A stretch of 33,331 bases of DNA from a bacterium (GTDB lineage: Bacteria > UBA6262 > WVXT01), in the NCBI GenBank assembly GCA_046759165.1, contig JBHIBS010000018.1, positions 1 through 33,331 on the forward strand. The letters are read 5' to 3'. The notes beneath the pieces are model-generated. The model was not told the DNA's origin and searched no databases. It worked only from the letters and a program-made list of their open reading frames with translations. This document shows, piece by piece, positions 6,448 through 25,925 of this stretch. Every line of letters starts with the position of its first letter. Position 1 is the first letter of the stretch. A program made the translations under genes and the position numbers.

Positions 6448-6481
6448 AACTATTCCTCCTGTTTATTCCTTCACACAGGAT

Positions 6482-7925: not shown

Positions 7926-8021
7926 CACTATTATACCTCCTTCCTTAAATCCACGCAAGATTTAATTTTTGGTAACGAGAATTGGCTATCTCTCGTTTTT
8001 CCTAACGCCCTGAAGAAAGTC

Positions 8022-8987: not shown

Positions 8988-9117
8988 CTCCTCATTTATA
9001 GTATGCCAAAATTTACTAACCCTTCACCTTCCAACAAAACTCTCTTCTGGTTTCTCTAGCCTTTTCTACCAACACCACCTCCTTTCCACCTCGGTTATTA
9101 ATACATTTTTTAAAATC

Positions 9118-9145
9118 GTGTTACAAACAGGCAAAAAAATAATAC
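9118..9145. promoter_or_regulatory. Candidate second NikR operator upstream of porin-nik genes
   Basis: GTGTTA-N16-TAATAC imperfect palindrome directly after the nikR stop. Confidence 0.4.
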
Positions 9146-9147
9146 TA

Positions 9148-9564
9148 TTATGCTATTTCTTTCCCAGTTGTCGCCATAGTCAAAGAGCCGTGTTTTACCC
9201 CCTTTGTTGACTTCAGTCTATAAGCCAACTTCTCAACCTGCTTTGGCTTGCCTTTCACTACCACTATCTCCACACAATTGTTTTCATCCAGGTGAACATG
9301 TTGAGATGAAATGATAATCTGGTGAAAATTGTGCTGTACATCAGTTAGCCTATTTACTAATTCTCTTTTGTGGTGGTTATAGACTAAAGTAATTGCTCCC
9401 ACAATCTCCCTGCCTTCTACCCACTCCTTCTTGACTAAATTTTCCCTAATCAAATCCCCAATCGCTTTAGAGCGAGTAGGATAATCCTTCTCTTTGATAT
9501 GTTTATCAAACTTGGTTAAGAGTTCTTTCTCGACTGATACACCAAAACGAACTAAATATGGCAT
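9148..9564 (-). CDS. nikR: Nickel-responsive transcriptional regulator NikR
   Basis: Ribbon-helix-helix RFGVS..RSKAIGDLIR; Ni ligands QH..HVHLDENNC. Confidence 0.96.
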   Translation of the reverse strand: MPYLVRFGVSVEKELLTKFDKHIKEKDYPTRSKAIGDLIRENLVKKEWVEGREIVGAITLVYNHHKRELVNRLTDVQHNFHQIIISSQHVHLDENNCVEIVVVKGKPKQVEKLAYRLKSTKGVKHGSLTMATTGKEIA

Positions 9565-9579
9565 CTTGATATATCCTTT

Positions 9580-9606
9580 GTACTACTTTTTTTGTAATTG
9601 TAGCAC
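9580..9606. promoter_or_regulatory. Putative NikR operator (autoregulation)
   Basis: GTACTAC-N13-GTAGCAC near-perfect palindrome overlapping the -10 element. Confidence 0.65.
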
Positions 9607-9626
9607 AATCAGCTTATTCATGTCAA
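9597..9626 (-). promoter_or_regulatory. Sigma70-type promoter of nikR
   Basis: TTGACA-N18-TACAAT with extended -10 TGn. Confidence 0.7.
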
Positions 9627-9700
9627 GCATTTTTTCCGGCTCTCTTTTGAGACTTGCTTAAGTCTATTAAAAATCTTTCCTGCAAGACCTATATCTATTC

Positions 9701-10054
9701 CTACTCTCCTTCGATACTTTGTAAGTAAACACTTTTGCCTTGGGTAACTTCTAAATTGTCATTTCCACAGTTAGGACATCGTAAAGAAAAACTTTGCTGA
9801 GGATTTATTTCTTTTCGGCATGACAGGCATCTTGCCTGCAATGGCTCTCTTGTGATTTCTAATTCTGCTTTCTCTACAATAGTACCTGGCATGAGGTGAT
9901 CCATTAAGCTATGCCTCAGAAAGTCCTCCTCAATTCCCGAGACCTCTCCAACTACTACCACAATCTTAGTGACTGCTTTTAGATTATTCTCTTTTGCTTT
10001 ATCCTTTACTATATGGAATAAATCCTGAGCTATACCCAATTCATGCATAACCAC
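9701..10054 (-). CDS. hypA: Hydrogenase nickel metallochaperone HypA
   Basis: MHE motif (likely start ATG 10048), CLSC and CPNC zinc sites. Confidence 0.95.
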   Translation of the reverse strand: MVMHELGIAQDLFHIVKDKAKENNLKAVTKIVVVVGEVSGIEEDFLRHSLMDHLMPGTIVEKAELEITREPLQARCLSCRKEINPQQSFSLRCPNCGNDNLEVTQGKSVYLQSIEGE

Positions 10055-10066
10055 CTCAATTAAAAC

Positions 10067-10167
10067 GGGCTCAATAAATTGAGCCCCTACATAAAATCTA
10101 CAATTTTGTTTGGTAGCCGCAAACTTCAGTTTGCGTTTGAAATGTAGGGGTTCGATTCATCGAACCC
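10067..10167. repeat. Cluster of three GTAG-footed REP hairpins
   Basis: GGGCTCAATAAATTGAGCCC-CTAC (10067-10090); GTAG-CCGCAAACTTCAGTTTGCG (10113-10135); GTAG-GGGTTCGATTCATCGAACCC (10144-10167). Confidence 0.85.
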
Positions 10168-10178
10168 ATTATCCCAGG

Positions 10179-10673
10179 CTAAAGCCGTCGGCTACCCTTT
10201 GAGAAACCTTCCTCCAGTGTCTCAACAATATTTTCTAAACTCTCTCTTACTGGCCGAGAAATTTCTCTCCTGAATTCCACAGTTCTTGGCTGAATTCCCA
10301 GAACGAATACATCTGCAGAGGTCTCTTCCTGTAAGTACTTCGCTACCAGATTCAGGCTCACGTTATGCGTAGAAAGAGACTCGTCCCTTATATCGTCCCT
10401 TTCTATAATCTTTATTGTTCCTGGGGGAGCACCAAGGTCAACCGCATCAATCAAAACTATTGTATCTGGTTTCTCTTTGCCAATCTTTTCTAAATAATTC
10501 TCAGGAACTTCACCGACATCAAACAGAAATAGAGTAGGTAACGGATTCTTTAATCTGTTTATTATCTCTGGACCGACTCCATCGTCGCCACGCAAAGGAT
10601 TCCCAATGCCCACAATCAATGCCTTGCCCTGGAGTCTATTTTTGAGTTTTGCCAGTTGACTATTATGAGACAA
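10179..10673 (-). CDS. Hydrogenase maturation endopeptidase (HycI-like)
   Basis: VGIGNPLRGDDGVG, VPEN, IDAVD, STH; start uncertain (TTG 10673 chosen, just after the upstream stop). Confidence 0.9.
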   Translation of the reverse strand: MSHNSQLAKLKNRLQGKALIVGIGNPLRGDDGVGPEIINRLKNPLPTLFLFDVGEVPENYLEKIGKEKPDTIVLIDAVDLGAPPGTIKIIERDDIRDESLSTHNVSLNLVAKYLQEETSADVFVLGIQPRTVEFRREISRPVRESLENIVETLEEGFSKGSRRL

Positions 10674-10674
10674 T

Positions 10675-11301
10675 TTACTCTTCCAGTTTCTTTTTACCCC
10701 AGATATCCTCAAGCAGAACCTCTCGACGGCACCTGGGACAGAGGATGCGAAAGATGTGGGCCCTCCTCAAAGGAGGACCTATTATTGGTGGGGCTTTTAC
10801 CAACTCCAGCTCTCCAGATGCGGTGAGTAGTAAAGGCATATTACCGTATGCCAGAGGTCCGAGCTTCTTCGCCAAAAAGTAAAGGTGGTCTTTAGCGCCA
10901 ATCACCTTGCCACACTCTTCACAAACTAACAGTTCCTTTTCTACTTTGACTGTAGCCTCATCTCTATTAAAGAGGGCCAAATCGTACTCCCCAGTGAGCT
11001 TGATTCCCTTTTCAGTAATGCAATTCGCCTGGCACTGACCACAGAAAATACAGATGTCAAAATGCAAAACGAATTTCCGCATTGGTGGCTTTGCTTTAGT
11101 ATCATCTATGACATCGATTGCTGTTGCCGGACAGACTTCAGCACAGGCAGAACAGCCCACACAATCTTTCTCATAAAATTCGGGCTTCCCCCGGAACTTC
11201 TCAGGGGGTAGGTGGGGTTCATAAGGAAACTTCGTTGTATAGGGACCCTTTATGATTGCTTTAATTGCTTCTTTTAATTCCCGTAATTTCGGATACTTCA
11301 T
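10675..11301 (-). CDS. 2[4Fe-4S] subunit of membrane-bound hydrogenase (NuoI/MbhN-like) with C-terminal Cys extension
   Basis: CVGCSACAEVCP, CIFCGQCQANC, extra CEEC and CPRC; SD AGGTG before ATG 11301. Confidence 0.9.
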   Translation of the reverse strand: MKYPKLRELKEAIKAIIKGPYTTKFPYEPHLPPEKFRGKPEFYEKDCVGCSACAEVCPATAIDVIDDTKAKPPMRKFVLHFDICIFCGQCQANCITEKGIKLTGEYDLALFNRDEATVKVEKELLVCEECGKVIGAKDHLYFLAKKLGPLAYGNMPLLLTASGELELVKAPPIIGPPLRRAHIFRILCPRCRREVLLEDIWGKKKLEE

Positions 11302-11314
11302 AATACACCTACAG

Positions 11315-11641
11315 CTATTTTTTGTCTTCTTGGTATTTATCGCAAACTGACTTCTCCCAGAGCCTAACTCCAAAAAGATGCGCACCTCGGGCTAAGGCAT
11401 GGGCGGCAGTGGGAGCAGTAAGAAAGATAAAAGGAATACAGACTAGTGCCTTTATTCCTAAACTGTTAAACCCTTGCATAATGAAAATCCCAAACATGAT
11501 TCCACAGGTCCCCAATGTGACACACTTTGTGGCTGCCTGGAGACGATTATAAACATCGGGTAATCTCACAAGCCCTATACAACCAAATGTATCAAAAACT
11601 ACCCCAACCACAATAATAATCTTTCCTATAGTCTCATTCAT
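11315..11641 (-). CDS. mnhG: Mrp antiporter subunit G-like (MbhC-like)
   Basis: GLVRLPDVYNRLQAATKCVTLG, TAPTAAHALARGA. Confidence 0.92.
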   Translation of the reverse strand: MNETIGKIIIVVGVVFDTFGCIGLVRLPDVYNRLQAATKCVTLGTCGIMFGIFIMQGFNSLGIKALVCIPFIFLTAPTAAHALARGAHLFGVRLWEKSVCDKYQEDKK

Positions 11642-11888
11642 TAAATTTCCTCCCTGAGAGATACTTCGCCAAAGCTAAGGTACCAACGAAACCCAAAAAT
11701 ATCCAGGCTAAAGCAACATCAATTAGAAACTTCCTTTTTGTATAGACCGCCAACAGTGCACAAATTCCAACTACCAGAATAGCCATAATATCAATGGCCA
11801 CCATACGGTCAGGGATAGTCAGACCGCGCCAGGCCCTATACAAACAGAAGAAACATAAAATTACTAAAATTAGAATCAAAATTTGCAT
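11634..11888 (-). CDS. mnhF: Mrp antiporter subunit F-like (MbhB-like)
   Basis: GLTIPDRMVAID, IDVAL, FVGTLALAKYL. Confidence 0.9.
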   Translation of the reverse strand: MQILILILVILCFFCLYRAWRGLTIPDRMVAIDIMAILVVGICALLAVYTKRKFLIDVALAWIFLGFVGTLALAKYLSGRKFNE

Positions 11889-11909
11889 CTAACTATTCTC
11901 CGCTCAAAT

Positions 11910-12395
11910 TTAATCAAATATCTTTGCCAGTATCTTCTCAAAACGACCAACAATAAGTTTGGTTGCTTCGGGCACCTCTTGTGAACGAACATTAATCCAA
12001 TGAATATACAAATATTCATCCTTAGTATCTACACTCAAGGTCCCAGGGGTCATGGTAATCGAATTGGCAAGACATGCCTTTGCCATATCACTCTTTAACT
12101 GTGTCTTTACCTTTACAATCCCGGGGTGAATAGGCATTCTTGGATGGAGCACCCGATAAGCCACATCAAAATTTGCCTTAATGCATTCCCATAAGAATAT
12201 AGGTACGTAGTAGCAGAACCACAAATATCTTTTTATCTGGAAGGATTTCTTAGGTTGTTGTACAAAAATATTACCGAAAAGAAAAGCTACTAAAAAGGCA
12301 ACACCCGTCCCGATCAGGAGATGTTGCCAATCTAAGGTTGAGGTCACTAACAGCCAAAAAAGAAAAGCCACAATAAACAGAATAATCCTTTTCAT
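11910..12395 (-). CDS. mnhE: Mrp antiporter subunit E-like (MbhA-like)
   Basis: KANFDVA, PGIV, LANSITMTPGTL, YIHWI. Confidence 0.93.
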   Translation of the reverse strand: MKRIILFIVAFLFWLLVTSTLDWQHLLIGTGVAFLVAFLFGNIFVQQPKKSFQIKRYLWFCYYVPIFLWECIKANFDVAYRVLHPRMPIHPGIVKVKTQLKSDMAKACLANSITMTPGTLSVDTKDEYLYIHWINVRSQEVPEATKLIVGRFEKILAKIFD

Positions 12396-12452
12396 TTTCT
12401 TTGATACCTCTTAGAATCCTTTAATAATAATGCTGCTCGGACTGCATATTTT

Positions 12453-13946
12453 TCAGCTTCCTAATACAAGTTGTGCATACCTGGCACCATTATGCAATGC
12501 TTCAACTGCTGGATCCAGAATAATCGCCTTTATTCCCGGGATGAGCAATATTCCCAATCCCACACAAAGTATAGCCAGAATAATCATTGAAATGCACATA
12601 ACCGCTGGTACTTCTTTTATGTCTTGCCATGCTGTACCTAATTTGCCGAAAAAGGCCAATTTTTGCACCTTAAGGTAGTACGCCAGAGTAATAACGCTTA
12701 CCAAAACTGCCAATAAGGCAAATATGAACTGTTGAGCTTGGATGGCAGCAATAATTATAATCAACTTACTCCAAAAACCACTTAATGGTGGGATCCCAGA
12801 AATCGACATGGAAGCAATCATAGAAGTTGTTCCGGTAACTGGCATCCTTTGAGAAAGCCCACCCATCTTCTCTAAATCTCGGTTTCCCGTTGAGTAGACA
12901 ACTGCTCCTGAATTCAAGAAAAGAAGGGACTTAAAAGTAGCATGGTTCAAAAGATGAAATAAGCCTCCCAAAAATCCTAAGGGGGTGCCCAGACCGAACG
13001 CTAAGATGATATAGCCAATCTGGCTAATGCTCGAATAAGCTAACAATCGCTTAAAGTCCCGCTGGCCCAGAGCCAGCAGTGACCCCGCAACCATGGAAAG
13101 AGTTCCTAGGACCATCAAGATATACAAGAACGAACTCATTTCCCCCAATCCCAGTACGTTAAACAGGACCCGACAGAGGGCATAAACTCCGATCGCCTTG
13201 ATTAACACACCAGAAAGCATTGCTGATATGGGTGCTGGCGCAGAAGGATGGGCATCAGGCAACCAGGCATGAAAAGGCATAATTGCTGCTTTGAGACCAA
13301 AACCCATTAAGAAAAGAGCGCCAATAAAAAAGACTGTGGGAGTGGTGCCCTGCTGACCAATTATTCTTCCCATATCAGCCATATTTAAAGTTCCTGTTAA
13401 ACTATAGGCTATGGCAATTCCAAAAAGAATGAAACAGGAAGCAACTGTGCCCAACACTTGATACTTAAATGCTGCTTCCAATTCCTCAGCTTCAGTACCA
13501 AAGGCAACTAATGCATAGGAAGCAATGGCAGCCACTTCCATGAATACGAAAATATTGAACATATCGCCGCTCAAGACCACACCGTTCATCCCAGCAATCA
13601 TTAGTAAGAATAAGGTATAATATCTCGGCTTATCAGTATACCTTTCCATATAAGCAATAGAATAGAATGTGGCCAGAAAGCCAATCCCATTGACGATAAG
13701 AAGCATCAGCACTGCCAAACCATCGAGGACCAAGTAGATACCAATAGGTATTCCCTTTACTGCTTCCCATCCACCTATTTTGTAGACCACCAATCCCTGT
13801 TTTGTAGCAAGTAAAGCCAGAACCAAGAGACTAAAGTTTACTAAATTGGCCAGAATATCTGGAATCTTTCTTGCTATCCTGCCTAACAGAGTCATCAAGA
13901 ATGCTGCACCCAAAGGAATAGCAATAAATAAGACAATGAGATTCAT
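12453..13946 (-). CDS. mnhD: Proton-conducting antiporter-like subunit (MrpD/MbhH-like)
   Basis: DMFNIFVFMEV, KAAIMPFHAWLPDAH, KRLLAYSSISQIGY, GIPPLSGFWSK. Confidence 0.9.
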   Translation of the reverse strand: MNLIVLFIAIPLGAAFLMTLLGRIARKIPDILANLVNFSLLVLALLATKQGLVVYKIGGWEAVKGIPIGIYLVLDGLAVLMLLIVNGIGFLATFYSIAYMERYTDKPRYYTLFLLMIAGMNGVVLSGDMFNIFVFMEVAAIASYALVAFGTEAEELEAAFKYQVLGTVASCFILFGIAIAYSLTGTLNMADMGRIIGQQGTTPTVFFIGALFLMGFGLKAAIMPFHAWLPDAHPSAPAPISAMLSGVLIKAIGVYALCRVLFNVLGLGEMSSFLYILMVLGTLSMVAGSLLALGQRDFKRLLAYSSISQIGYIILAFGLGTPLGFLGGLFHLLNHATFKSLLFLNSGAVVYSTGNRDLEKMGGLSQRMPVTGTTSMIASMSISGIPPLSGFWSKLIIIIAAIQAQQFIFALLAVLVSVITLAYYLKVQKLAFFGKLGTAWQDIKEVPAVMCISMIILAILCVGLGILLIPGIKAIILDPAVEALHNGARYAQLVLGS

Positions 13947-14278
13947 CCCTTTAATCTCCTTATTTTCCTTATATCAAATGTTCCATGCTTTTCGTAAATT
14001 CGCACGGCAATAGAAACCAAAAGAGCCATAACCCCCAAGCCGATGACGATTGCCGTAAGAACTAATGCTTGAGGCAGAGGGTCAACAAACAAAGCTTTTT
14101 CAAACCCTTTACTGATAATTGGCGCTGTCCCTCCTTTCTGATAACCAATAATTGCAAAGAAGAGAAAGAGAGCATATTCCATGATGCTGAGTCCAATAAT
14201 TATCTTAATTAAGTTCCTCTTAACTAAAACACCATATAAACCAATTAATAGTAGCAGTGCACATAATAAATAGATCAT
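13943..14278 (-). CDS. mnhC: Mrp antiporter subunit C-like (MbhG-like)
   Basis: NLIKIIIGL, DPLPQALVLTAIVIG. Confidence 0.93.
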   Translation of the reverse strand: MIYLLCALLLLIGLYGVLVKRNLIKIIIGLSIMEYALFLFFAIIGYQKGGTAPIISKGFEKALFVDPLPQALVLTAIVIGLGVMALLVSIAVRIYEKHGTFDIRKIRRLKG

Positions 14279-14712
14279 TCCTTGTCCCCTTTCCCTTTTA
14301 AGACTGCCAAAGTAATGAAAATTGCAAACAGAGCCGCCCCAACCTCAATGCCAATACCAATATTACAAGGAAGGATAATACCCGCACTGAAAAGCCTGAG
14401 TGGTCTCCCCTTAGAGAGAAGGTTCAGAAAAAAGAAAGTGCCTCCAAAAACACCTAACATGGCTAAAAACCAGAAGATAAATATACCCAAACTTTCACCT
14501 AAAGACGCCCGCCATTTTTTTATCTCTGTTGATAACTCTTCTGAACCCTCTGCTAACACTAATAAAACAAATGCACCAGCAATGATTACCCCTCCAGCAA
14601 AACCTCCTCCTGGAGTAAGATGGCCATGAAACACTACGTAAATCCCGTATAAAAAGATTATTCCAGCAATCAATCTGGTAATTGTCTTTACTATGAGCGT
14701 CATTCCTCTCAT
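14275..14712 (-). CDS. mnhB: MnhB-domain subunit (MbhF-like)
   Basis: HGHLTPGGGFAGG, ESLG, LFSAG, IGIEV. Confidence 0.9.
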   Translation of the reverse strand: MRGMTLIVKTITRLIAGIIFLYGIYVVFHGHLTPGGGFAGGVIIAGAFVLLVLAEGSEELSTEIKKWRASLGESLGIFIFWFLAMLGVFGGTFFFLNLLSKGRPLRLFSAGIILPCNIGIGIEVGAALFAIFITLAVLKGKGDKE

Positions 14713-14771
14713 TTATACTCTCCCGTTTTGCTTAGAGGAACTCTTTTTGTGAGCCCCCCTCATCTCGTCGG

Positions 14772-14827
14772 GTAGGGGTTCGATTCATCGAATCCGCAAA
14801 AACGGGCTCAATAAATTGAGCCCCTAC
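14772..14827. repeat. REPIN (inverted pair of GTAG REPs)
   Basis: GTAG-GGGTTCGATTCATCGAATCC, 8-nt spacer, GGGCTCAATAAATTGAGCCC-CTAC. Confidence 0.88.
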
Positions 14828-14841
14828 ATTTGATTCGGTAA

Positions 14842-15378
14842 TCATTCCCTGGTTCGACGACCTATTTTTCGGAGCACGGCAATCACTCCCATCACAGCAG
14901 TAAACAATACAGTAGCCTCGCCCAAGGTATCATAGCCTCGAAAATCAAGGATTACTGCAGCAACCAAATTGCTCGCTCCTGTCTTTGTTAGACCTAAGGA
15001 GAGATAATTACGTGCCATCCTCATTATCGGATGGCCAAACTGAGGCAACTCTCTAAACGCTTGATTCACAAAGAATAGAAAGAGCCCCAAAAAACCGAGA
15101 CCGCATAAATATATGAAGATTTTTCTCACACCCCGTGTTTCAGCAGTATCCTCTCTTGTAGTTTTCAATATTGCAGCAATTAGAATAATAAGAGCTAAGG
15201 TTTCAACTACAATCTGGACAATAGCTAAATCGGGTGCCTGTAGAATCAAAAATACAAGGACCAGAGCAAATCCAACAATGCCCAAAGAGATAACTGCTGA
15301 GAGAAGATCCCTTCCTTCTAAAGCAACAATGGCTCCAAGAATCATCAAGATTAAGAGTAGAATTAGAATCGTCAACAT
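14842..15378 (-). CDS. Fused DUF4040 + MrpB N-terminal subunit (MbhD-MbhE-like)
   Basis: QAPDLAIVQIVVE and NLVAAVILDFRGYDTLGE in one ORF. Confidence 0.85.
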   Translation of the reverse strand: MLTILILLLILMILGAIVALEGRDLLSAVISLGIVGFALVLVFLILQAPDLAIVQIVVETLALIILIAAILKTTREDTAETRGVRKIFIYLCGLGFLGLFLFFVNQAFRELPQFGHPIMRMARNYLSLGLTKTGASNLVAAVILDFRGYDTLGEATVLFTAVMGVIAVLRKIGRRTRE

Positions 15379-15382
15379 TTCC

Positions 15383-17206
15383 TTAACCTTTTACCAACGT
15401 GAAGAATATAATTACCGTTCCAATTAGCACCCATATTAAGTATGTGGTCAAGACACCTGTATGTATTTTCTTTAATCCCTTGGTAAACAGAGAGACAACT
15501 CTCGTTCCTTGGTCATAAATATCGAAAAGTTTCTTTTCAGCCTTTCTATAGATTTCTTTAAATGTTCCCATGTCCCTTATTGTATCATAGAAGTCCACCC
15601 CGGTTACACGGCTATCTTCAGAAATTACCTCACCACCAATATAAGCCGTATCCATCCGTAAGCCCTTAATATTACCTATCCAATAGATAATTACTCCCAA
15701 AATAATTCCGATAACAATCAGTAAAGTCGCAAGACTTGGCGACCAGAAACCAAGGAAAGACACCCCAGGAACTGCAGGCAAAATAAAATTCTTTAAAGGA
15801 ATCTTGTATGCAAAAACACCAAAAATTACACATAGCACTGCCAATATCGCCATAGGCATCCACATAGCAAACGAAACCTCATTTCGTTTTGGTGCTGGGC
15901 GATAGGTAGTGGGCGATGGGGAGCCTAAAAACACAGAGTGTATCAATTTCATAAAACTAGCCAAAGTCAATGCGCTCCCGAATATTGCTGCCACTAACCA
16001 AATAATCCAGAACCTAGACACCAATCCCTGACTGTGGGTCTCTGTTTCTATTATCCCTTGATAGATCATCCATTTGGAGATAAATCCGTTAAGAGGAGGT
16101 ACTCCAGAGATAGATAAGCCAGCTACCAAGCAGGCACCAAAGGTTATGGGCATTGTTTTAGCCAGCCCTCCGAGATTATCAAATTCTGTAGTCTTTATTC
16201 TATTCTCTACTGCCCCACAAGATAAGAAAAGACAACTCGTCCAAATAGAGGTAGATAACAGATAAAATAATCCGCCGGCAATCCCTACAGAATTTCCAGT
16301 GGCAATTGCCACCACCATATAGCCAGCAGCACTAATATTTAAATAAGCAATGAGCTTTCTTATCTCCTTCTGTACTAAAGCAGCCATCACTGAAGCTACC
16401 AAAGTAAATGTGCCAAGAAGCATTAACACAAGACCCATTGCATTATTTATCTGAAACAGATGCAAGGCTATTCTTCCCAGAAGGTAGATACCTATCAATT
16501 TATCTAACGAAGCTGGTAAGAATGCAGTCACTGATGTCGGTGCGGTCTCGGCCATATCCGGAATCCAGGTATGCAATGGCATTGCCCCAACTTTGGCAAA
16601 CACAGCCATCACTAACGTGAGAAAAGCTATGATGGACAACTCCCCAGAAATAGGGATAATAATTTTATCCATCTCAAACGATCTGGTTAAAAACCAGATA
16701 ATCCCAACACCCAAGATCATTAAAGCATCAGACCCGCCAACAATTATGAAACTCTTTTTTGCTGCAGCAGAAGCTTCAGGTCCTCCAATTCCAATGAGTA
16801 AGTAGAGAGTCAAGCCAAGAAATCCCCAAAAAACCAGAAGTAGAATCAGATTGTTTGTTAAGATTGCCCCGCAAGCCCCACCAATTGTCCAGAGAAGATA
16901 AGTATAGTATTCGTTTAAGCGCTCTTTGCCTGCCATATATTTTAGTGAATATAGAATAATCAAAACTCCAAAAAGACCAATAGCTAAAAGAATAAATCCA
17001 CTAAGATTGTCGACTTTCAAAAGAAGGAGATTATTGTGAGTCCACTCAACAGGCTTACGCAGAAAACTAACTATAGTGAGATAGAAAGTTACGAGTGAAC
17101 CGCCTATCGCCAACCATTCTCTAAGCTTACTTAACTTTTTGGGAAGCACCAAACAGAATAGTCCCACTATAAATGGAATAATAATGAGATAAAGCACAGG
17201 ATTCAA
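15383..17206 (-). CDS. Second antiporter-like subunit (NuoL/MrpA-like)
   Basis: KVGAMPLHTWIPD, LPASLDK, GVPPLNGFISKW, C-terminal HTGVLTTY; start moved to TTG 17206 because the track start lies inside a REP. Confidence 0.88.
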   Translation of the reverse strand: MNPVLYLIIIPFIVGLFCLVLPKKLSKLREWLAIGGSLVTFYLTIVSFLRKPVEWTHNNLLLLKVDNLSGFILLAIGLFGVLIILYSLKYMAGKERLNEYYTYLLWTIGGACGAILTNNLILLLVFWGFLGLTLYLLIGIGGPEASAAAKKSFIIVGGSDALMILGVGIIWFLTRSFEMDKIIIPISGELSIIAFLTLVMAVFAKVGAMPLHTWIPDMAETAPTSVTAFLPASLDKLIGIYLLGRIALHLFQINNAMGLVLMLLGTFTLVASVMAALVQKEIRKLIAYLNISAAGYMVVAIATGNSVGIAGGLFYLLSTSIWTSCLFLSCGAVENRIKTTEFDNLGGLAKTMPITFGACLVAGLSISGVPPLNGFISKWMIYQGIIETETHSQGLVSRFWIIWLVAAIFGSALTLASFMKLIHSVFLGSPSPTTYRPAPKRNEVSFAMWMPMAILAVLCVIFGVFAYKIPLKNFILPAVPGVSFLGFWSPSLATLLIVIGIILGVIIYWIGNIKGLRMDTAYIGGEVISEDSRVTGVDFYDTIRDMGTFKEIYRKAEKKLFDIYDQGTRVVSLFTKGLKKIHTGVLTTYLIWVLIGTVIIFFTLVKG

Positions 17207-17230
17207 TATCTTCCCATCCTTTTCGACATT

Positions 17231-17284
17231 GTAGGGGCTCAATTTATTGAGCCCGCTTGCGGGTTTGATAAATCAAACGCCTAC
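17231..17284. repeat. REPIN (inverted pair of GTAG REPs)
   Basis: GTAG-GGGCTCAATTTATTGAGCCC, 6-nt spacer, GGGTTTGATAAATCAAACGC-CTAC. Confidence 0.88.
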
Positions 17285-18486
17285 AATAAATCTCTAATTT
17301 TTTCCATCTCCTTCTTAATCTTGAAGGTTTTTTCTTGAGATAACTTTATCAGGTCCTGACCGGTCAGATCTTTCTTTCCGGTCTTTTTATCCACAACTGC
17401 CACTCTTTCCGTGCAACAGTAGCAGGGGTCTACAGCAGCCAGGGTTATTGTGGCATCGGAAATAGTTCCACCGACTACCGATTTCTTATTAGTGGGAACA
17501 TTCATATAGCTGGGAGCCCTAATCTTATATCTTACTGGACGGTTACTGCCGTCACTCCGCACATAATGAAAAACTTCGCCCCTCGGAGCCTCGTGGTGAC
17601 CAATCCCTTCCCCAGGAGGAATCTCCTTAACCTTGGCATCTATCTCCCCACCAACTACTTTTAACCTTTCCAGACACTGCTTGATAATCTTTACTGATTC
17701 ATACATTTCCAGTATCCTGACCACGACCTTGGCAAAAACATCTCCCTCTGGACGCGTTATTGCTTTCCAGTCAACCAGAGGATAGGCAGCGTAAGGGTCG
17801 TCTTTTCTGACATCTATTGCCACACCTGAAGCCCGGGCTGTGGGACCAAGCGCTCCATACTCAATCACATCCTCCCTGGTTAAAACCCCCACTCCTTTTG
17901 TTCTGGCAGCGATTACAGGGTCATCCATTACCGCTCCCCTGAACATATCCAGTACCGGAAGCAAATCATCCACCATTTTCATTATGTGAGGAATATCATT
18001 ATTATCAATATCCCTTCTAACACCACCCGCTTTCATCATTGCATAATGGTTACGATTGCCTGAAATTCTTTCACAAATATCAAGCACAGGCTCCCGGTAT
18101 TTCCAGGCCCACATCCATACTGTATTGTAACCTATAAAGTGACCCGCAAGTCCCAGCCAAAGTAAATGTGAATGGAGTCTTTCCAGTTCAGCAATGATAC
18201 TTCGAATATATAGCGCACGTTCAGGAACTTTTATATTGCCCAAATCCTCCATTGCATTTACAGAGGCGATGGGATGCGATGTGGAGCAGATACCACAAAC
18301 ACGCTCCACCAGGAAAATTACCTGGTCGTAACTCTTCGCTTCAGCAACTTTCTCAATTCCCCGGTGATTATATCCTATTTCTATCTCCAGCTCCACAACA
18401 TTTTCACCCTCCACAAGGAGCTTAAAGAATTCCGGCTCTTCTTGTAAAGGATGGTATGGCCCAACAGGAATAATCGTCTTAGCCAT
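17281..18486 (-). CDS. Group 4 [NiFe] hydrogenase large subunit
   Basis: GYNHRGIEK, L1 RVCGICSTSH, EAPRGE, L2 DPCYCCTER followed by a 40-aa C-terminal extension. Confidence 0.95.
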   Translation of the reverse strand: MAKTIIPVGPYHPLQEEPEFFKLLVEGENVVELEIEIGYNHRGIEKVAEAKSYDQVIFLVERVCGICSTSHPIASVNAMEDLGNIKVPERALYIRSIIAELERLHSHLLWLGLAGHFIGYNTVWMWAWKYREPVLDICERISGNRNHYAMMKAGGVRRDIDNNDIPHIMKMVDDLLPVLDMFRGAVMDDPVIAARTKGVGVLTREDVIEYGALGPTARASGVAIDVRKDDPYAAYPLVDWKAITRPEGDVFAKVVVRILEMYESVKIIKQCLERLKVVGGEIDAKVKEIPPGEGIGHHEAPRGEVFHYVRSDGSNRPVRYKIRAPSYMNVPTNKKSVVGGTISDATITLAAVDPCYCCTERVAVVDKKTGKKDLTGQDLIKLSQEKTFKIKKEMEKIRDLL

Positions 18487-18918
18487 CTATTCTCTCCTCA
18501 GAGGATACTTCCCTTCTGGCCAATCTTCAAATAAGAGTAGCCTTTTTAGATTAGGATGGTTTCTGAAATTCACTCCCAAAAGTTCATGTATCTCTCTCTC
18601 TATCCACTCCGCTCCTTTTATTATGGGAGTTACTGATTCTATTTCTGGATGCTTCTTATCAATTAGAGTGCGAAGAGAAACAATTGTTCCCGAACTATCA
18701 AATGAAAAGTGGTAGAGTATTTCTATCCCCTTCTGGGTATCCATCCCGCTTGCAGTCGCTAATCGTCCTCTTAGTTCCCGGAATAGGAAACTCACCACCT
18801 CAGGTATATCTTTTGAGTCAAAGTCAACATATATTCGACGAGGAGACTTCTCAAAAACTTTAAGAACCCTTTTAGAGAATCTATCTTTTATTTTTACCAA
18901 AATTTCTTCTGCCATCAA
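18487..18918 (-). CDS. NuoC/MbhK-like hydrogenase subunit
   Basis: EILYHF, AEWIEREIHELLGVNFRNHP, YPLR. Confidence 0.9.
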   Translation of the reverse strand: MMAEEILVKIKDRFSKRVLKVFEKSPRRIYVDFDSKDIPEVVSFLFRELRGRLATASGMDTQKGIEILYHFSFDSSGTIVSLRTLIDKKHPEIESVTPIIKGAEWIEREIHELLGVNFRNHPNLKRLLLFEDWPEGKYPLRRE

Positions 18919-18919
18919 A

Positions 18920-19342
18920 TTAGCCTTTCTTTAATGCCTTAATCAGTTTGACAACTCCCATAATTATTGCTTCTGGTTTTGGAGGACAACCCGGGATGTA
19001 TGCATGAACAGGAACAAGTCTATCCACAGGTCCAGCCATATTATAAGAATCTCTAAAAATTGTCATCGAACAGGCACAAGCACCAACTGCTACAACCAGA
19101 CATGGTTTAGAAGCCTGCTCATAAAGCCTCTTTAACCTCACTGCTCCTTTATGAGAAACCGCACCAGTAACCAGCATAACATCTGCATGACGAATGCTTC
19201 CCACTAAAAGGATACCAAACCTCTCCAAATCGAACTTGGGAGTTAATGCATCCAGAATTTCTATATCGCAGTTATTGCAAGGAGCGGATGCAAAATGGAA
19301 AACCCAGATAGATTTGGTTAATGCCTTTGTCTTAAGATCCAT
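18920..19342 (-). CDS. Group 4 hydrogenase small subunit (NuoB/MbhJ-like)
   Basis: CNNCDIE, IRHAD, VGACA, YIPGCPP. Confidence 0.94.
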   Translation of the reverse strand: MDLKTKALTKSIWVFHFASAPCNNCDIEILDALTPKFDLERFGILLVGSIRHADVMLVTGAVSHKGAVRLKRLYEQASKPCLVVAVGACACSMTIFRDSYNMAGPVDRLVPVHAYIPGCPPKPEAIIMGVVKLIKALKKG

Positions 19343-19343
19343 C

Positions 19344-20273
19344 TTATATCCCCAAAAATGCAAGAATTATACCTATAACTGCTAAGATTGTCATCGGTCC
19401 CCAGAAAAATTTTATTGCCTGGTCAATACGCAGTCGGGGATTAGTGTTGCGCATTAAAATAATAATTACTAAGAGCAGGACATATTTTAATATGCCCCAT
19501 AAAATGTGCCAGCCGGAAAATATGATACCGCCCATAAACATAATTACTAAAAACATGGGGACTACAAACAACATCATCCAACGGCTAAGTTTATAAAGAG
19601 CTAAAGGGACTCCAGAATATTCAATATAAGGGCCTGCTATTATCTCCGTTTCTGCCTCAGGAATATCGAAAGGCACTAAGGCCAGTTTCGCCTGCATACA
19701 GACTATAGCAACAACAAAGGCAATAAATCCAGACCAGGAATTGAGGAAGATACTATTTGCCCATTGATACCGGAGCAACTCACCAAGCCTGATTATCCCA
19801 TGCGCTTGAATAACCGGAGTGAAAATAGCCAGAATGAAAGGTAACTCATATGCTAAAATCATTTTCATTTCCCGAGAAGCACCTAAGGAAGCTAAAGGAT
19901 TCCCAGAAGCAAAACCACCTATAATTACACTTATAGAAGGAATTGCCAATAAATAGATAACCACAATTAAATCTCCCAGAAAAGTCTCCTCTGGTGAAAT
20001 CATTACTAGCCAAATTAGAGTGGAGACAATAGTCACTGCAGCCAATCCAAAAAGGGGAGAAAGAAGAAAGGTCAATTTCGACCCTCCTTGAGGAACAATC
20101 GTTTCTTTACCCAATAATTTTACAAAATCGTAAAGTGGCTGAAGTATCGGCGGCCCTACTCGCCATTGCACCCGGGCAGTAACCTTTCGGTCAATCCAAC
20201 TAGCTAATATGGCTACCAATGCCGTAAACAAAAATCCAGGAAATACTATGAAGTAGAATAAAGTCTTTACCAT
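19344..20273 (-). CDS. NuoH/MbhM-like membrane anchor subunit
   Basis: DRKVTARVQWRVGP, DFVKLLGKE, GASRE, PFDIPEAETE, NPRLRIDQ. Confidence 0.93.
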   Translation of the reverse strand: MVKTLFYFIVFPGFLFTALVAILASWIDRKVTARVQWRVGPPILQPLYDFVKLLGKETIVPQGGSKLTFLLSPLFGLAAVTIVSTLIWLVMISPEETFLGDLIVVIYLLAIPSISVIIGGFASGNPLASLGASREMKMILAYELPFILAIFTPVIQAHGIIRLGELLRYQWANSIFLNSWSGFIAFVVAIVCMQAKLALVPFDIPEAETEIIAGPYIEYSGVPLALYKLSRWMMLFVVPMFLVIMFMGGIIFSGWHILWGILKYVLLLVIIILMRNTNPRLRIDQAIKFFWGPMTILAVIGIILAFLGI

Positions 20274-20275
20274 TC

Positions 20276-20749
20276 TTACTTTCTTTCCCAAGGAATATAA
20301 TGGACTACTAGATTCTTTCCCACAGCAAGATAGTTCTTTTTCGGGTCTTCCTCAATCTCCTCGTATCTAATTGCCTTCTCCGGACAGTCCTCTACACAAA
20401 CAGGAGCCTTTCCATTTGCCCGATCTAAACAATAATCGCAACTAGAAACGAGGTAGGGAATAACTTCAGGATAAATCGTTCCAAAAGGACAAGCTACAAC
20501 GCAAGATTTACACCCCACGCAGCGCATATTATATCTTTTCAATACTCCGTCCTTCTGTTTTTCAAGCGCCTCTTGGGGGCAGACTTTAACACAGGCAGCT
20601 TCCTCACAATGTCTGCAGATAAAAGAAAAAGCAGCTAATTCCCTTAAACTGGTTACTCCATTATTGTCAGGATGGTAGAAATAACTACAGGAGACCGTAC
20701 AGTCTTTACACTTAGAACAGGCTTCCAAATCAATAAACAACTTTTTCAT
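20276..20749 (-). CDS. Multi-[4Fe-4S] electron-transfer protein (HycB/CooF-like)
   Basis: CSKCKDCTVSC, CRHCEEAACVKVCP, CVGCKSCVVACP, CDYC..CVEDCP; track N-terminus lies in a repeat, so ATG 20749 chosen. Confidence 0.88.
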   Translation of the reverse strand: MKKLFIDLEACSKCKDCTVSCSYFYHPDNNGVTSLRELAAFSFICRHCEEAACVKVCPQEALEKQKDGVLKRYNMRCVGCKSCVVACPFGTIYPEVIPYLVSSCDYCLDRANGKAPVCVEDCPEKAIRYEEIEEDPKKNYLAVGKNLVVHYIPWERK

Positions 20750-20766
20750 ATCATTCCAATCTTTAG

Positions 20767-20979
20767 AAGATAGTTTGTGAAGAGTAGTTGGAATTTTAGC
20801 CAAAAAAACAAGGACGACATGTTCTCCTAATGCGAGGGGATTTGGTGGAGCGAGCATTAGAATTTTTAGCCAAAAATCGAAGAAAAGAGTTTAGTCCCAC
20901 AAAGACGGGAGAAACTCCTGAGATTTTTGGCAGTGCTCAAAGAGCAAAAAATTGTTAGCGAACGAACCAAATCCCGAAC
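20767..20979. repeat. Composite repeat: MITE left end plus G.A-rich foldback element (copy C)
   Basis: TTAG then AAGATAGTTTGTGAA identical to the MITE end at 1509; stems 20837-20846/20966-20975, 20869-20878/20922-20931, 20887-20892/20912-20917, 20934-20938/20942-20946. Confidence 0.8.
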
Positions 20980-21797
20980 TACAACCAGATATCCGGGACA
21001 TCTTTTATCAGATCGTATCTGAAAACCGGACCATCTTTACAAACATAATACTTACCGAGTGCACAATGTCCACATTTGCCAAGACCACAGGACATATTCT
21101 TCTCCATTGAAAGGTAGATATTTTCAGGTTTATATCCTAAATCCATCAACTTTAGCGTGCCGAATTTCATCATAATGGGAGGTCCACAAACCACGGCCAC
21201 AGAATTTCTTAAATCCATCTTGACTTTGTCCAGAAGGACAGTCACCAGTCCCTCAGTTTCATTCCATCCGGGAGTCGCTTTATCCACACTTCTCAAGATT
21301 TCCAATTTCCCTTTTTTCTTCCATTCAGGAAAGGCATATTTATAAACTATATCTTCAGGAGTTCTCGCTCCATAACAGAGAACTATTCGCCTGAACTTAT
21401 CTACATTTTCCAGAAGAGTAAGAAGTAGAGACCTCAGGGGTGCCATGCCCACTCCCCCGCCGAGAATCAAAACTTCCTTATCATAAAAATCACCAAGGGA
21501 ATATCCATAACCATAAGGACCTCGAATCCCTAAAATTTCTCCCTCCTTCATCTCATATAATTTGTCCGTTAGAAGTCCAACCTTCATGATGGTTAGCTCT
21601 ATCCTTTCATTCTGGGAGGGAGAAGAGGAAGGAGTAAAGGGCGCTTCGGCAATACTGGGTATAGTTAGTTGAACAAATTGACCAGTTTCGAATTTGATTT
21701 TTCGGCTGGGCTTCAACACAAAAGTCTTTATGTTAGGAGTCTCATCAATAATCTTCTCAACCTTAGCTCCAATTGGTAAATAGGGATTCTCCACCAT
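20979..21797 (-). CDS. FAD/NAD(P)-binding [2Fe-2S] oxidoreductase (AsrB / sulfhydrogenase gamma / FlxA-like)
   Basis: GQFVQL, RGPYG, GGGVGMAPLRS, VCGPPIMM, MSCGLGKCGHC..VCKDGPVF. Confidence 0.92.
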   Translation of the reverse strand: MVENPYLPIGAKVEKIIDETPNIKTFVLKPSRKIKFETGQFVQLTIPSIAEAPFTPSSSPSQNERIELTIMKVGLLTDKLYEMKEGEILGIRGPYGYGYSLGDFYDKEVLILGGGVGMAPLRSLLLTLLENVDKFRRIVLCYGARTPEDIVYKYAFPEWKKKGKLEILRSVDKATPGWNETEGLVTVLLDKVKMDLRNSVAVVCGPPIMMKFGTLKLMDLGYKPENIYLSMEKNMSCGLGKCGHCALGKYYVCKDGPVFRYDLIKDVPDIWL

Positions 21798-22817
21798 TTA
21801 CTTTTCACCCTTTTCACTTAATTTCTTTATCACTTCTCTTTTGTCTATTTTTCCCGGACAGGCTTCCACACAGCGACCACAACCGCTACAGGATACAATT
21901 CCAAAATTTTCTAGCCTATATTCGTATTTGCACAAATATCTATTCCTCAACCTTTCATATAATTTTGCTCGGGGATTGATGCCCGCAGCTACCCTGGCAA
22001 AGCCGGTATGCTGACAGGAATCCCAAAACTTAACTTTGGGAAATTTACCTCCATCTTTTGTATCCACAAGGAGAAAGCAGTAACAGGAAGGGCATATGTT
22101 AGTACAGGCTCCACATTCCACACAGGTTTTGGCTACTTCTTCCCAGACAGGCGAAGTATAATCCTCTTTTACAATAGAGAGGAAAGGTCTTCTGGTCTTA
22201 AATTCCCTGTTTATCTCTATCAATCTCTCCTTTGCTTCTTTTCTCTTATTTTCTCTCTCATCCATTAAATCCGAAGTTGCTTCTTTCAAATCTTCTCTTA
22301 TAGAAGCGATAAAGTTCTTTCCTTTAGGAGAACCCACTTCGAGCAGGAAGCCATTACCTATGGGAGAGATGTTGAGATCAAAGTCTCTTTCTGGAAAAGG
22401 ATTATTGTCCAGCAAAGTACAAAAACATGTATCTTTTGGCTGATAACAATCGGAGGAAATAATAAGAGTAGTCTCTCTTCTCTTTTTATAAAAAGGGTCT
22501 ACAAAGTCCTCCTCCAGGAAAATCTTATCCATAACCGAATGCGCTTTAAGGTCACAATTTTTAACTCCCAGAACTATCGTCCTCTCTGCCTGGGGAGTAA
22601 CCTCTGTTACCTTTTCCTGAGGTAAAGAGAAGAAGGTCTTAAAAGGTTGAACTGCCCGATAAGTACCATAAATGGTCTTGTTGACATTTTCTGGAGTCAA
22701 GACCTGATAGGCCAGATCGTCATAAACCTCTTGTGGAGCATAAATACGATAAGATCTTAAAATCTGTCCCAGAAATTTTTCCCAATTCGCTCTATCTATA
22801 TAAAATTTCATATTCAT
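21798..22817 (-). CDS. Iron-sulfur subunit (AsrA / sulfhydrogenase beta / FlxB-like)
   Basis: GVKNCD, TCFC, CVECGACTNICPSCYCF, WDSC, CSGCGRCVEACP. Confidence 0.9.
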   Translation of the reverse strand: MNMKFYIDRANWEKFLGQILRSYRIYAPQEVYDDLAYQVLTPENVNKTIYGTYRAVQPFKTFFSLPQEKVTEVTPQAERTIVLGVKNCDLKAHSVMDKIFLEEDFVDPFYKKRRETTLIISSDCYQPKDTCFCTLLDNNPFPERDFDLNISPIGNGFLLEVGSPKGKNFIASIREDLKEATSDLMDERENKRKEAKERLIEINREFKTRRPFLSIVKEDYTSPVWEEVAKTCVECGACTNICPSCYCFLLVDTKDGGKFPKVKFWDSCQHTGFARVAAGINPRAKLYERLRNRYLCKYEYRLENFGIVSCSGCGRCVEACPGKIDKREVIKKLSEKGEK

Positions 22818-22830
22818 AACTTGAGAAACT

Positions 22831-22848
22831 TTGTGAATTTTTTCACAA
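22831..22848. promoter_or_regulatory. Rex operator
   Basis: TTGTGAA-TTTT-TTCACAA, exact Rex consensus, between promoter and first gene, next to rex. Confidence 0.92.
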
Positions 22849-22888
22849 ATACCCCAAAAAAATTTAGAACTTGTTACCTTAAGTTTAG

Positions 22889-22918
22889 ATTATACAAAAT
22901 GAATCGAGTAAGTGTCAA
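22889..22918 (-). promoter_or_regulatory. Sigma70-type promoter of the hydrogenase operon
   Basis: TTGACA-N18-TATAAT. Confidence 0.85.
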
Positions 22919-22933
22919 GTAAATCTTTAAAAT

Positions 22934-23551
22934 TTATTTGGCCAAGAAACAGCTCAAGGTTTGTAGTTCTGTAGACAAGTCTATATTTTTTAATTTCAAC
23001 CCTTCTGGTACAGCCAGTTTATAAGGAGCAAAGTTTAATATCGCTTTCACCCCTGACTGGATTAAAATTTGAGCAACCTGTTGGGCGGAAAAATGGGGTA
23101 CAGCGATGATTGCAATTCTTATTCCTCTCTCCTTTACTACTTTCGGTATCTGCTTCATATCCAGAATCTCCACTCCCTGCCAGGTCCTTCCTATCTTTGT
23201 TGGTGAGTTGTCAAAGATGACCGAAATTTGGAATCCATGTTGGCGGAATCCAGGATAGGCAGAAAGTGCTCTTCCCAAATTTCCAGCCCCTACCAATGCG
23301 ACCTGCCATTTCCTATCCAATCCCAGGGTCTTATCAAGTCCCTCGGAAAGCTTGTTTACATTGTAGCCTTTTCCTCTCTCACCAAACTGCCCTACATAGG
23401 AAAGGTCACGGCGTATTTGAGAAGGTTTAAAATGCATCTTCACCCCCAACCTCTCAGAAGTCACCAAAGGCTTTCCTTTCTTAAGTAGAGACTTTATATA
23501 ACGGCGATAGATAGTTAGACGGTTGACTGTTATTTCAGGTAGCTTCTCCAT
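22934..23551 (-). CDS. rex: Redox-sensing transcriptional repressor Rex
   Basis: RLTIYRR, QIRRDLSYVGQFG..GKGY, Rossmann VGAGNLG, ILNFAP. Confidence 0.97.
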   Translation of the reverse strand: MEKLPEITVNRLTIYRRYIKSLLKKGKPLVTSERLGVKMHFKPSQIRRDLSYVGQFGERGKGYNVNKLSEGLDKTLGLDRKWQVALVGAGNLGRALSAYPGFRQHGFQISVIFDNSPTKIGRTWQGVEILDMKQIPKVVKERGIRIAIIAVPHFSAQQVAQILIQSGVKAILNFAPYKLAVPEGLKLKNIDLSTELQTLSCFLAK

Positions 23552-24969: not shown

Positions 24970-25031
24970 TTTACCTGAATTTTACCGATGATCTCTAATA
25001 TATCCATCTTTATATAGCAAACCTTTTATTC

Positions 25032-25820: not shown

Positions 25821-25925
25821 ATTCTTTCCCTCCAGAATGTATTTCAAAGCCTTTTCGTGCTACCCGTCCTCTATGCTCCCTTTTGGGAGGACTCCAAGGT
25901 TTATCTTCGCTTTCAAATTCCTTAT

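Follow-up and report, generated by a model that had tools for sequence, protein, structure and literature searches.

The stretch of DNA analyzed in this study (hereafter the window) comprises 33,331 nucleotides, positions 1 to 33,331 of contig JBHIBS010000018.1, from a bacterium of the WVXT01 lineage. Its minus strand carries an operon for a [NiFe] hydrogenase of group 4. The operon is an intact member of the Hun family (hunA to hunP), which has already been named in a bioRxiv preprint (10.1101/536078) and is uncharacterized. We consider it probable, on the basis of sequence comparison, that Hun acts as an ion-coupled NAD(P)H:H+ oxidoreductase under the control of Rex, with NAD(P)H in place of free ferredoxin as its electron donor. 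The solved relatives of HunA and HunB, the invariant motifs of HunB, the HycF/HycB-type wiring of the complex and its predicted regulation by Rex point to this donor. What is new here is the regulatory and motif evidence across bacterial groups, which is absent from the searchable literature and bears on a specific revision of the function.

According to the available part of the preprint (10.1101/536078), the Hun supercomplex consists of 16 subunits and occurs in metagenome-assembled genomes (MAGs) of Atribacteria and Firmicutes, in those of Omnitrophica, Elusimicrobia and Bacteroidetes, and in Kosmotoga isolates. HunAB are described there as resembling AsrAB, with AsrC missing, HunEFGP as the Ni-Fe module and the membrane subunits as Mrp-like. 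HunG, with the signature CGIC-CYCC, is placed in HydDB group 4g, yet lies far from the other sequences of that group. The window showed the 16 genes in order, the motifs CGIC and CYCC, and AsrAB-like genes without AsrC among its 37 open reading frames (ORFs). The lettering hunA to hunP used here was inferred from the module lists in the available part of the preprint. A second paper (PMC6349859) describes, in the part available, asrA, asrB and cooF in Saganbacteria beside a group 4 hydrogenase of the Mrp type that is called 'enigmatic'. A full-text search, with subscription journals and bioRxiv supplements outside its reach, returned these two sources alone for the pairing of asrAB-like genes with an Mrp-type hydrogenase of group 4, and in the available parts of both NAD(P)H is not proposed as the donor. 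The text of the preprint contains no occurrence of Rex. In the parts available, 10.1101/322537 holds nothing on the [NiFe] enzyme of Kosmotoga and PMC8165549 mentions NADPH for photosynthesis alone. An earlier interpretation of the window from its letters (hereafter the sequence-only reading) had proposed an NAD(P)H-flavin module attached to a group 4 hydrogenase under Rex. That combination and the anatomy of the operon were supported by our analysis; the architecture itself, however, proved to be already published.

The flavin module and its wiring

The first two genes of the operon are hunA (21798..22817, minus strand) and hunB (20979..21797, minus strand). The former encodes an AsrA/HydB-like Fe-S subunit of 339 amino acids (Pfam Fer4_22). 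The latter encodes an AsrB/HydG-like flavoprotein of 272 amino acids, in which Pfam detected FAD_binding_6 (E = 9.8e-08), NAD_binding_1 (E = 3.7e-17) and DHODB_Fe-S_bind, a PyrK-type 2Fe-2S domain. The best match of HunB in the PDB was the gamma subunit of sulfhydrogenase 1 from Pyrococcus furiosus (9nez_C, E = 1.2e-50, residues 3-268), and that of HunA was the beta subunit of the same enzyme (9nez_B, E = 3e-45), which NCBIfam labels 'NADPH-dependent hydrogenase/sulfhydrogenase 1'. The scores against the curated NCBIfam models were below the cutoffs for both proteins: HunA reached 174 bits for HydB (cutoff 750) and 128.9 for AsrA (TIGR02910, cutoff 323.15), and HunB reached 178.3 bits for HydG (cutoff 650) and 219.5 for AsrB (TIGR02911, cutoff 288.6).

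Related loci were collected by a scan of one genome per species, which yielded 80 loci with a HunG about 65-89% identical; in public protein sets HunG has many relatives at 71-91% identity. Synteny was scored by tblastn of the window proteins against these loci, and the informative set consisted of the 63 loci in which 5 kb or more of sequence precedes hunG. The sequence-only reading depended on the asrAB-like genes being conserved next to homologous hydrogenases, and this linkage was indeed found: hunA, hunB and hunC lay upstream of hunG on the same strand in 62 of the 63 informative loci. We therefore rejected the possibility that HunAB serve a soluble partner encoded elsewhere. The exception was L063, which might have been taken for a Hun locus lacking hunABC; runs of N border it, however, and it is thus uninformative. 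The 17 loci that were cut shorter included one with all of hunABC, three with a HycB-like gene at the contig edge and 13 cut before it. Downstream, the order from the Mrp-like genes through the NuoI-like gene to hycI was maintained wherever the contig reached, apart from minor variants. The loci are labelled Clostridia, Omnitrophota, Elusimicrobiota, Bacteroidales/Rikenellaceae, Nitrospirota, Planctomycetia, Verrucomicrobiota and Eisenbacteria, that is, at least eight groups, and the majority of the carriers have a Bacteroidales or Omnitrophota label.

When 63 HunB sequences were aligned, the GGxGxxP motif (G114-G115-x-G117-x-x-P120), which is the NAD(P) motif of the ferredoxin-NADP+ reductase (FNR) type, was invariant. 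The same was true of the GPPxM motif (G205-P206-P207-x-M209), of R92-G93 and of E51, P53, F54, S57 and S58 in the flavin-site stretch EAPF..SS, and of the four cysteines of the 2Fe-2S cluster. HunB therefore has the features of an FNR-type flavoprotein, namely the FAD and NAD(P) domains together with the GGxGxxP and CGPPxM-type motifs. The mean column identity was 69% for HunB, 49% for HunA and 43% for HunC. In 61 HunA sequences, 15 cysteines were invariant. The invariance of the motifs and the high identity of HunB are unlike what would be expected for a vestigial domain. It is likely from these features that HunB binds NAD(P)H.

The third gene, hunC (20276..20749, minus strand), encodes a HycB/CooF-type connector ferredoxin with 4x[4Fe-4S] (Pfam Fer4_11). 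Its ORF spans 20276-20857; the likely start, however, is M37 at 20749, which gives 157 amino acids with four Cys4 motifs, and the orthologues are 152-186 amino acids long. The 'polyferredoxin' of the sequence-only reading is thus a small HycB-type protein. Eight cysteines were invariant in 66 HunC sequences. The PDB matches of HunC were of the HycB type (7z0s_B, E = 1e-11, and also HycB3/4 of 7qv7). HunP, at the other end of the operon, matched HycF (7z0s_F, E = 1.5e-19) better than MbhN (6cfw_N, E = 5.1e-12). Since HunP is nearest to HycF and HunC matches HycB connectors, the wiring resembles that of hydrogenases with a dedicated substrate module.

The published reading treats Hun as a ferredoxin-dependent, H2-evolving, Na+/H+-translocating hydrogenase of the Mbh type, in which HunABC would be a mere Fe-S antenna that accepts electrons from reduced ferredoxin. 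The nearest solved structure of HunG is indeed the alpha subunit of the ferredoxin-dependent Mbh (6cfw_L, E = 1.4e-88), followed by HycE (7z0s_E), and both HunA and HunC contain many Fe-S clusters. Reduction of protons by ferredoxin would also be thermodynamically comfortable and would permit the export of ions. This reading, however, leaves unexplained why the GGxGxxP and GPPxM motifs and the FAD-type site of HunB are invariant and why HunB is conserved above HunA and HunC. Among solved structures, HunAB come closest to the NADPH module of sulfhydrogenase 1, and the NAD_binding_1 domain does not suggest the premise that AsrAB-type subunits take electrons from ferredoxin. HunP, moreover, is more like HycF, which is fed by a bound connector, than like the ferredoxin-facing MbhN. 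Ferredoxin as the sole donor therefore appears to us unlikely.

Another possible interpretation is that the membrane-bound complex draws on both NAD(P)H and reduced ferredoxin at once for ion-coupled H2 formation, i.e. confurcation. A pyridine-nucleotide flavoprotein is present in HunB, and HunA and HunC are Fe-S proteins of an exposed type that could dock ferredoxin. Such a reaction would remove the thermodynamic problem of forming H2 from NADH. With Pfam, however, neither HunA nor HunC showed a second flavin-binding domain, and no bifurcating subunit of the NuoF/HydB or GltD type was found in the operon with Pfam and NCBIfam. We also know of no bifurcation by the beta-gamma module of sulfhydrogenase 1. 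Confurcation is, in our judgment, highly improbable.

Probable control by Rex and continuity of the transcript

The region upstream of hunA contains a sigma-70-type promoter, TTGACA-18 nucleotides-TATAAT (22889..22918, minus strand), which matches the consensus at 12 of 12 positions and is the sole such match within 9000-23700. Promoter-like sites in this interval numbered 39, compared with 31.9 +/- 4.8 in shuffled sequences, so that the weaker matches are at chance level. A palindrome that matches the Rex operator TTGTGAA-N4-TTCACAA perfectly is located at 22831..22848, 13 nucleotides before the start of hunA. It is the single site with two or fewer mismatches in the 33 kb of the window (shuffle mean 0.24). 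The single promoter and the single Rex box described in the sequence-only reading were thus both recovered.

The gene for the redox-sensing repressor, rex (22934..23551, minus strand), which that reading does not mention, is directly upstream of the operon. Its product contains Put_DNA-bind_N and CoA_binding (Pfam) and scored 256.7 bits against a cutoff of 126 for NCBIfam Rex (NF003995). An operator in the promoter region and an adjoining gene for its repressor were therefore found together, as in a Rex regulon. No further Rex box with two or fewer mismatches was found across 23535-31214.

The distribution of Rex boxes was then surveyed in 1,283,095 nucleotides of the related loci, in which the 430-nucleotide windows upstream of hunA make up 2.1% of the bases. 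Of the 55 Rex boxes with two or fewer mismatches, 47 fell within these 430-nucleotide windows. Such a box lay upstream of hunA in 43 of the 63 loci, as a perfect site in seven, with one mismatch in 14 and with two in 22. A rex gene was located 34-386 nucleotides from hunA in 38 of the 63 loci (6 co-directional and 32 divergent), and two of these neighbouring genes in related loci were confirmed as Rex by NCBIfam. Rex boxes were present even without an adjoining rex gene (L011, L013, L024, L025, L070 and L071). Control by Rex, which had been proposed from the single operator of the window, is therefore supported by Rex boxes and rex genes that are conserved at hunA across groups. Rex leaves its operators at a high NADH/NAD+ ratio. 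The conserved boxes and rex genes accordingly direct attention to the NADH pool, a point for which dependence on ferredoxin would offer no reason.

The sequence-only reading had also described mostly short gaps between the genes. The majority of the intergenic gaps are 0-21 nucleotides or overlaps, and the larger ones hold repeats, which occupy three of the larger gaps in the operon. The spacer between hunB and hunC (20750..20978, 229 nucleotides) contains pieces at 20755-20808 and 20929-20977 that match 1497-1550 and 114-162, respectively, which flank hypD, at 78% and 86% identity. A further related copy is present at 1661-1699. Since the copy near 1500-1699 has inverted ends, the spacer repeat is probably a small mobile element resembling a miniature inverted-repeat transposable element (MITE). 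Neither of the close relatives L003 and L004 has this spacer.

A second repeat is a hairpin of 29-31 nucleotides, similar to a repetitive extragenic palindrome (REP), with the stem GGGCTCAAT/ATTGAGCCC, which occurs in both orientations between genes of the hun, hyp and acs clusters. The copies at 10062-10092, 10132-10167, 14799-14829, 17230-17258 and 29805-29867 fold into structures far more stable than those of shuffled sequences (z from -3.6 to -6.5). Two copies are followed by a T-run on the coding strand and are thus terminator-like. One terminator-like copy lies in the hunI-hunJ gap (14799..14829; 14823-14804 on the minus strand), the predicted RNA fold of which has an energy of -17.8 kcal/mol (z = -3.55).

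Proposed reaction and direction of electron flow

The following scheme is proposed from these comparisons. HunB, an FNR-type flavoprotein with FAD and a 2Fe-2S cluster, would exchange hydride with NAD(P)(H). The electrons would pass from HunB through the Fe-S clusters of HunA to the HycB-type connector HunC, and from there through the HycF/NuoI-type HunP and the NuoB-type HunE to the Ni-Fe site of HunG. This redox step may be coupled to the movement of H+ or Na+ by HunD together with the Mrp-like subunits HunH to HunO. Transcription would start from the one strong promoter, at which Rex, bound to the operator before hunA, would block it until the NADH/NAD+ ratio rises. Release of Rex at a high ratio would mean that the complex is produced when an electron sink is required. 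The main direction would then be from NADH to H2, assisted by inward flow of H+ or Na+ through the Mrp-like arm, and the reaction would be reversible.

The standard potentials at pH 7 are -414 mV for H+/H2 and -320 mV for NAD+/NADH, so that under standard conditions the oxidation of H2 by NAD+ releases about 18 kJ/mol. Where the H2 partial pressure is 1-10 Pa, the couple is close to equilibrium. Formation of H2 from NADH therefore requires energy under 1 bar H2 and approaches equilibrium at the H2 levels of sediments, so that an inward ion flow would assist it. Ion gradients are used to reverse group 4 hydrogenases such as Eha/Ehb and Ech. We tentatively put forward, with somewhat less than even confidence, the wider picture that Hun is a widespread, Rex-controlled, membrane-bound NADH-dependent hydrogenase. 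It would be a complex I ending in protons and not in quinone, driven by the ion gradient from NADH to H2 or conserving energy in reverse.

The reverse direction was preferred in the sequence-only reading: H2 would reduce NAD(P)+ with export of H+ or Na+, and would thereby provide a Wood-Ljungdahl acetogen, or an acetate oxidizer, with reductant and a chemiosmotic site. At standard conditions the 18 kJ/mol would be enough for roughly one ion per H2. In the window, the genes upstream of rex (23535-31214) are, according to Pfam and NCBIfam, fdhD, mobA, the gene for the AcsE methyltransferase, the gene for AcsD, a CooC-like ATPase gene and the genes for RACo and AcsC; fdhA was not found in the window, although fdhD and mobA are there. 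Wood-Ljungdahl genes flank the operon here and in five of the 80 related loci (L001, L002, L003, L005 and L018). Given that the linkage is so rare and that most carriers are labelled Bacteroidales or Omnitrophota, acetogenesis cannot be the general function of the Hun family, and the proposed role is lineage-specific at best. Derepression by Rex at high NADH would fit an NADH-consuming enzyme better, and almost no free energy would be available for ion pumping at low environmental H2. In the present organism, which bears Wood-Ljungdahl genes, reduction of NAD(P)+ by H2 with ion export deserves serious consideration, although we give it a rather low probability.

Several points weigh against NAD(P)H as the donor and against the direction toward H2. 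Under standard conditions, about 18 kJ/mol must be supplied to form H2 from NADH. To our knowledge, all characterized group 4 hydrogenases use low-potential donors, namely ferredoxin, formate or CO. The counts of Rex boxes depend on the consensus TTGTGAA-N4-TTCACAA that was used for scoring. Rex regulons of other bacteria also hold ferredoxin-dependent enzymes, and control by Rex therefore does not identify the substrate. Among the 63 loci, 20 have no Rex box with two or fewer mismatches (five have a three-mismatch site only and 15 have none), and 25 have no adjoining rex gene. Because of the repeat-bearing hunB-hunC gap and the terminator-like hairpin between hunI and hunJ, a single transcript is not assured. 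The assignment of NAD(P)H binding to HunB is drawn from motifs and homology. Finally, the one published proposal for the function of Hun, in the available part of 10.1101/536078, assigns ferredoxin as its electron donor, and HydDB lists group 4g as 'ferredoxin-coupled (putative)' (PMC5037454, in the part available).

It would seem reasonable, nevertheless, to ask what NAD(P)H as the donor of Hun would mean. The disposal of electrons from NADH as H2 by fermenting and syntrophic anaerobes is a classic energetic problem, to which two solutions are known: electron-confurcating [FeFe] hydrogenases, and Rnf together with ferredoxin-dependent hydrogenases. If the proposal is true, low-energy anaerobes in at least eight bacterial groups would have a single-enzyme route from NADH to H2, distinct both from the confurcating [FeFe] hydrogenases and from Rnf plus Ech. 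The complex I family would gain a new class, an ion-coupled NADH:H+ oxidoreductase. Group 4g and Hun are common in sediment and subsurface MAGs and are routinely modelled as ferredoxin-dependent Mbh, as in the available parts of PMC8542988, PMC5037454 and 10.1101/536078, the first of which treats such 4g enzymes as putatively ferredoxin-coupled. Metabolic models would accordingly change for Omnitrophota, Bacteroidales, Elusimicrobiota, Atribacteria and uncultured Clostridia. Since hun is reported in cultured Kosmotoga isolates (10.1101/536078, in the part available), the NAD(P)H hypothesis is directly testable.

Operon layout, neighbouring genes and comparison with known systems

The row of minus-strand genes from 22817 to 9701 is uninterrupted, and all of its genes are intact according to the ORF listing, Pfam and NCBIfam; every gene named in the sequence-only reading was found. 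Following hunC, hunD (19344..20291, minus strand) encodes the NuoH-like membrane anchor (Pfam NADHdh, E = 4.9e-67), hunE (18920..19363, minus strand) the NuoB-like small subunit (Oxidored_q6), in which the cluster cysteines CxxC...C...C are retained, and hunF (18487..18918, minus strand) a NuoC-like subunit (Complex1_30kDa). The large subunit of 401 amino acids is encoded by hunG (17281..18486, minus strand; Complex1_49kDa and NiFeSe_Hases). All four Ni-Fe cysteines that had been noted are present, in RVCGICSTSH (L1) and DPCYCCTER (L2), and the L2 motif is CYCC in 78 of the 80 related loci and CYSC in two. HunG also bears a C-terminal extension of the type cleaved by HycI proteases. The two CxxC Ni-Fe motifs, the NuoB-type [4Fe-4S] small subunit and the NuoH-type membrane subunit place the enzyme in group 4.

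The membrane arm of this complex-I-like enzyme comprises a full Mrp-type antiporter set. It begins with hunH (15383..17242, minus strand), an MrpA/NuoL-like antiporter subunit (Proton_antipo_M/N), the start of which is uncertain because the REP-like hairpin at 17230-17258 overlaps it. The other genes of the arm, likewise on the minus strand, are as follows: hunI (14842..15378; MbhD, MbhE), which is MbhD/MbhE-like and equivalent to the C-terminal part of MrpA; hunJ (14275..14712; MnhB), which is MnhB-like; hunK (13943..14278; Oxidored_q2), which is MnhC/NuoK-like; hunL (12453..13946; Proton_antipo_M, E = 4e-71), an MrpD-like second antiporter subunit; hunM (11910..12395; MNHE), which is MnhE-like; hunN (11634..11888; MrpF_PhaF), which is MrpF/MnhF-like; and hunO (11315..11641; PhaG_MnhG_YufB), which is MnhG-like. 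The last hun gene, hunP (10675..11385, minus strand), encodes a NuoI/HycF-like 2x[4Fe-4S] subunit (NCBIfam formate hydrogenlyase Fe-S subunit, E = 2.8e-28). Its real start is probably downstream of 11385, as its orthologues have about 200-214 amino acids.

The row continues on the minus strand with the gene for a hycI-type maturation endopeptidase (10179..10712; TIGR00142, 128.7 bits against a cutoff of 119.1) and with hypA for a nickel metallochaperone (9701..10054; TIGR00100, 94.1 bits against 88.1). Both of these extend beyond the range of 10675-22848 that the sequence-only reading had given for the operon. As that reading stated, neither AsrC, nor a group 3b alpha or delta subunit, nor Hdr was found by Pfam among the 37 main ORFs of the window (20 and 17 ORFs). 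Between 9701 and 22817, Pfam and NCBIfam detected no molybdopterin or CODH (carbon monoxide dehydrogenase) domain. No Rfam RNA family was found in the window at the gathering threshold.

A block for nickel supply and maturation lies downstream at 183-9564. It contains nikR for the nickel-responsive regulator (9148..9564, minus strand; NF003381, 189.3 bits against 105), the genes for a DUF4198 protein, CbiM, CbiQ and an ABC ATPase, and hypF and hypD. Within this block, the ORF at 8022-8987 is weakly porin-like (Porin_4 only, E = 5.6e-4), and the ORF at 5836-6447 gave weak Ig-like matches alone. At the edge of the window, on the opposite strand, an ORF with a DDE_Tnp_IS240 transposase domain is located at 32031-33137 (plus strand).

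Several variants of the layout were observed among the related loci. L018 carries one more MrpD-like gene, placed between hunG and hunH, and in L024 the NuoI-like gene directly follows hunG and is itself followed by a distant (28%) MrpA-like gene. An additional ORF of 151 amino acids lies between hunB and hunC in 17 of the 80 loci, all with Bacteroid*-type labels; it contains the Pfam domain cNMP_binding (E = 1.7e-10; for example, L047:7202-7657). In L025, labelled Nitrospirota, an insert of 3.8 kb (3148-6966) separates hunB from hunC, which could be an insertion or a mis-assembly. It was considered as the molybdopterin protein of some Hun loci and rejected, as it holds two N_methyl pilin-like ORFs and two large ORFs without a Pfam domain. 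The identity to the window is uneven in L001, L002 and L005, where it is 78-90% in hunA to hunG (in L001 also hunP) and 54-73% in hunH to hunO. In L004 it is about 72-95% across the operon and about 89-95% in hunI to hunO. This mosaic points to recombinational exchange of the membrane/Mrp cassette.

In structure, the copy in the window is no different from Hun as described in the available part of 10.1101/536078: it has the same 16-gene order, HunABC, the NuoB/C/D/I-type module and the Mrp-like subunits. To that description it adds the REP- and MITE-like insertions in three gaps and the Wood-Ljungdahl flank. Among the known systems, Hun is like the group 4d Mbh of P. furiosus (6cfw), a respiratory H2-evolving type, in that Mbh provides the closest solved large subunit and a similar Mrp-derived arm with MbhD/E-, MnhB-, C-, E-, F- and G-like subunits. 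Mbh consists of 14 subunits (MbhA to MbhN) with one antiporter-like subunit, has no flavoprotein and no HycB-type connector, and is docked directly by ferredoxin. Hun adds HunABC and a second antiporter-like subunit, the MrpD-like HunL, and is therefore not an Mbh.

With formate hydrogenlyase (group 4a, 7z0s) and the Mrp-linked formate and CO complexes (group 4b), Hun shares the arrangement in which a substrate dehydrogenase is followed by a HycB/CooF-type ferredoxin and a HycF-type subunit. The HycI protease and the C-terminal extension of the large subunit, both present in the window, are further likenesses to formate hydrogenlyase. The substrate module of Hun, however, is an FNR-type flavoprotein with an AsrA-like Fe-S protein and not a molybdopterin formate dehydrogenase or a CODH. 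This module finds its counterparts elsewhere. HunA and HunB share the domain architecture of AsrA and AsrB, although their scores are below the curated cutoffs and the sirohaem subunit AsrC has no counterpart among the ORFs of the window. They are full-length homologues of the beta and gamma subunits of the group 3b sulfhydrogenase I of P. furiosus (9nez/9nf0). That enzyme is soluble and its beta-gamma module partners alpha and delta subunits, which the window lacks, whereas the module of Hun is encoded with a group 4 hydrogenase and its Mrp-like membrane arm.

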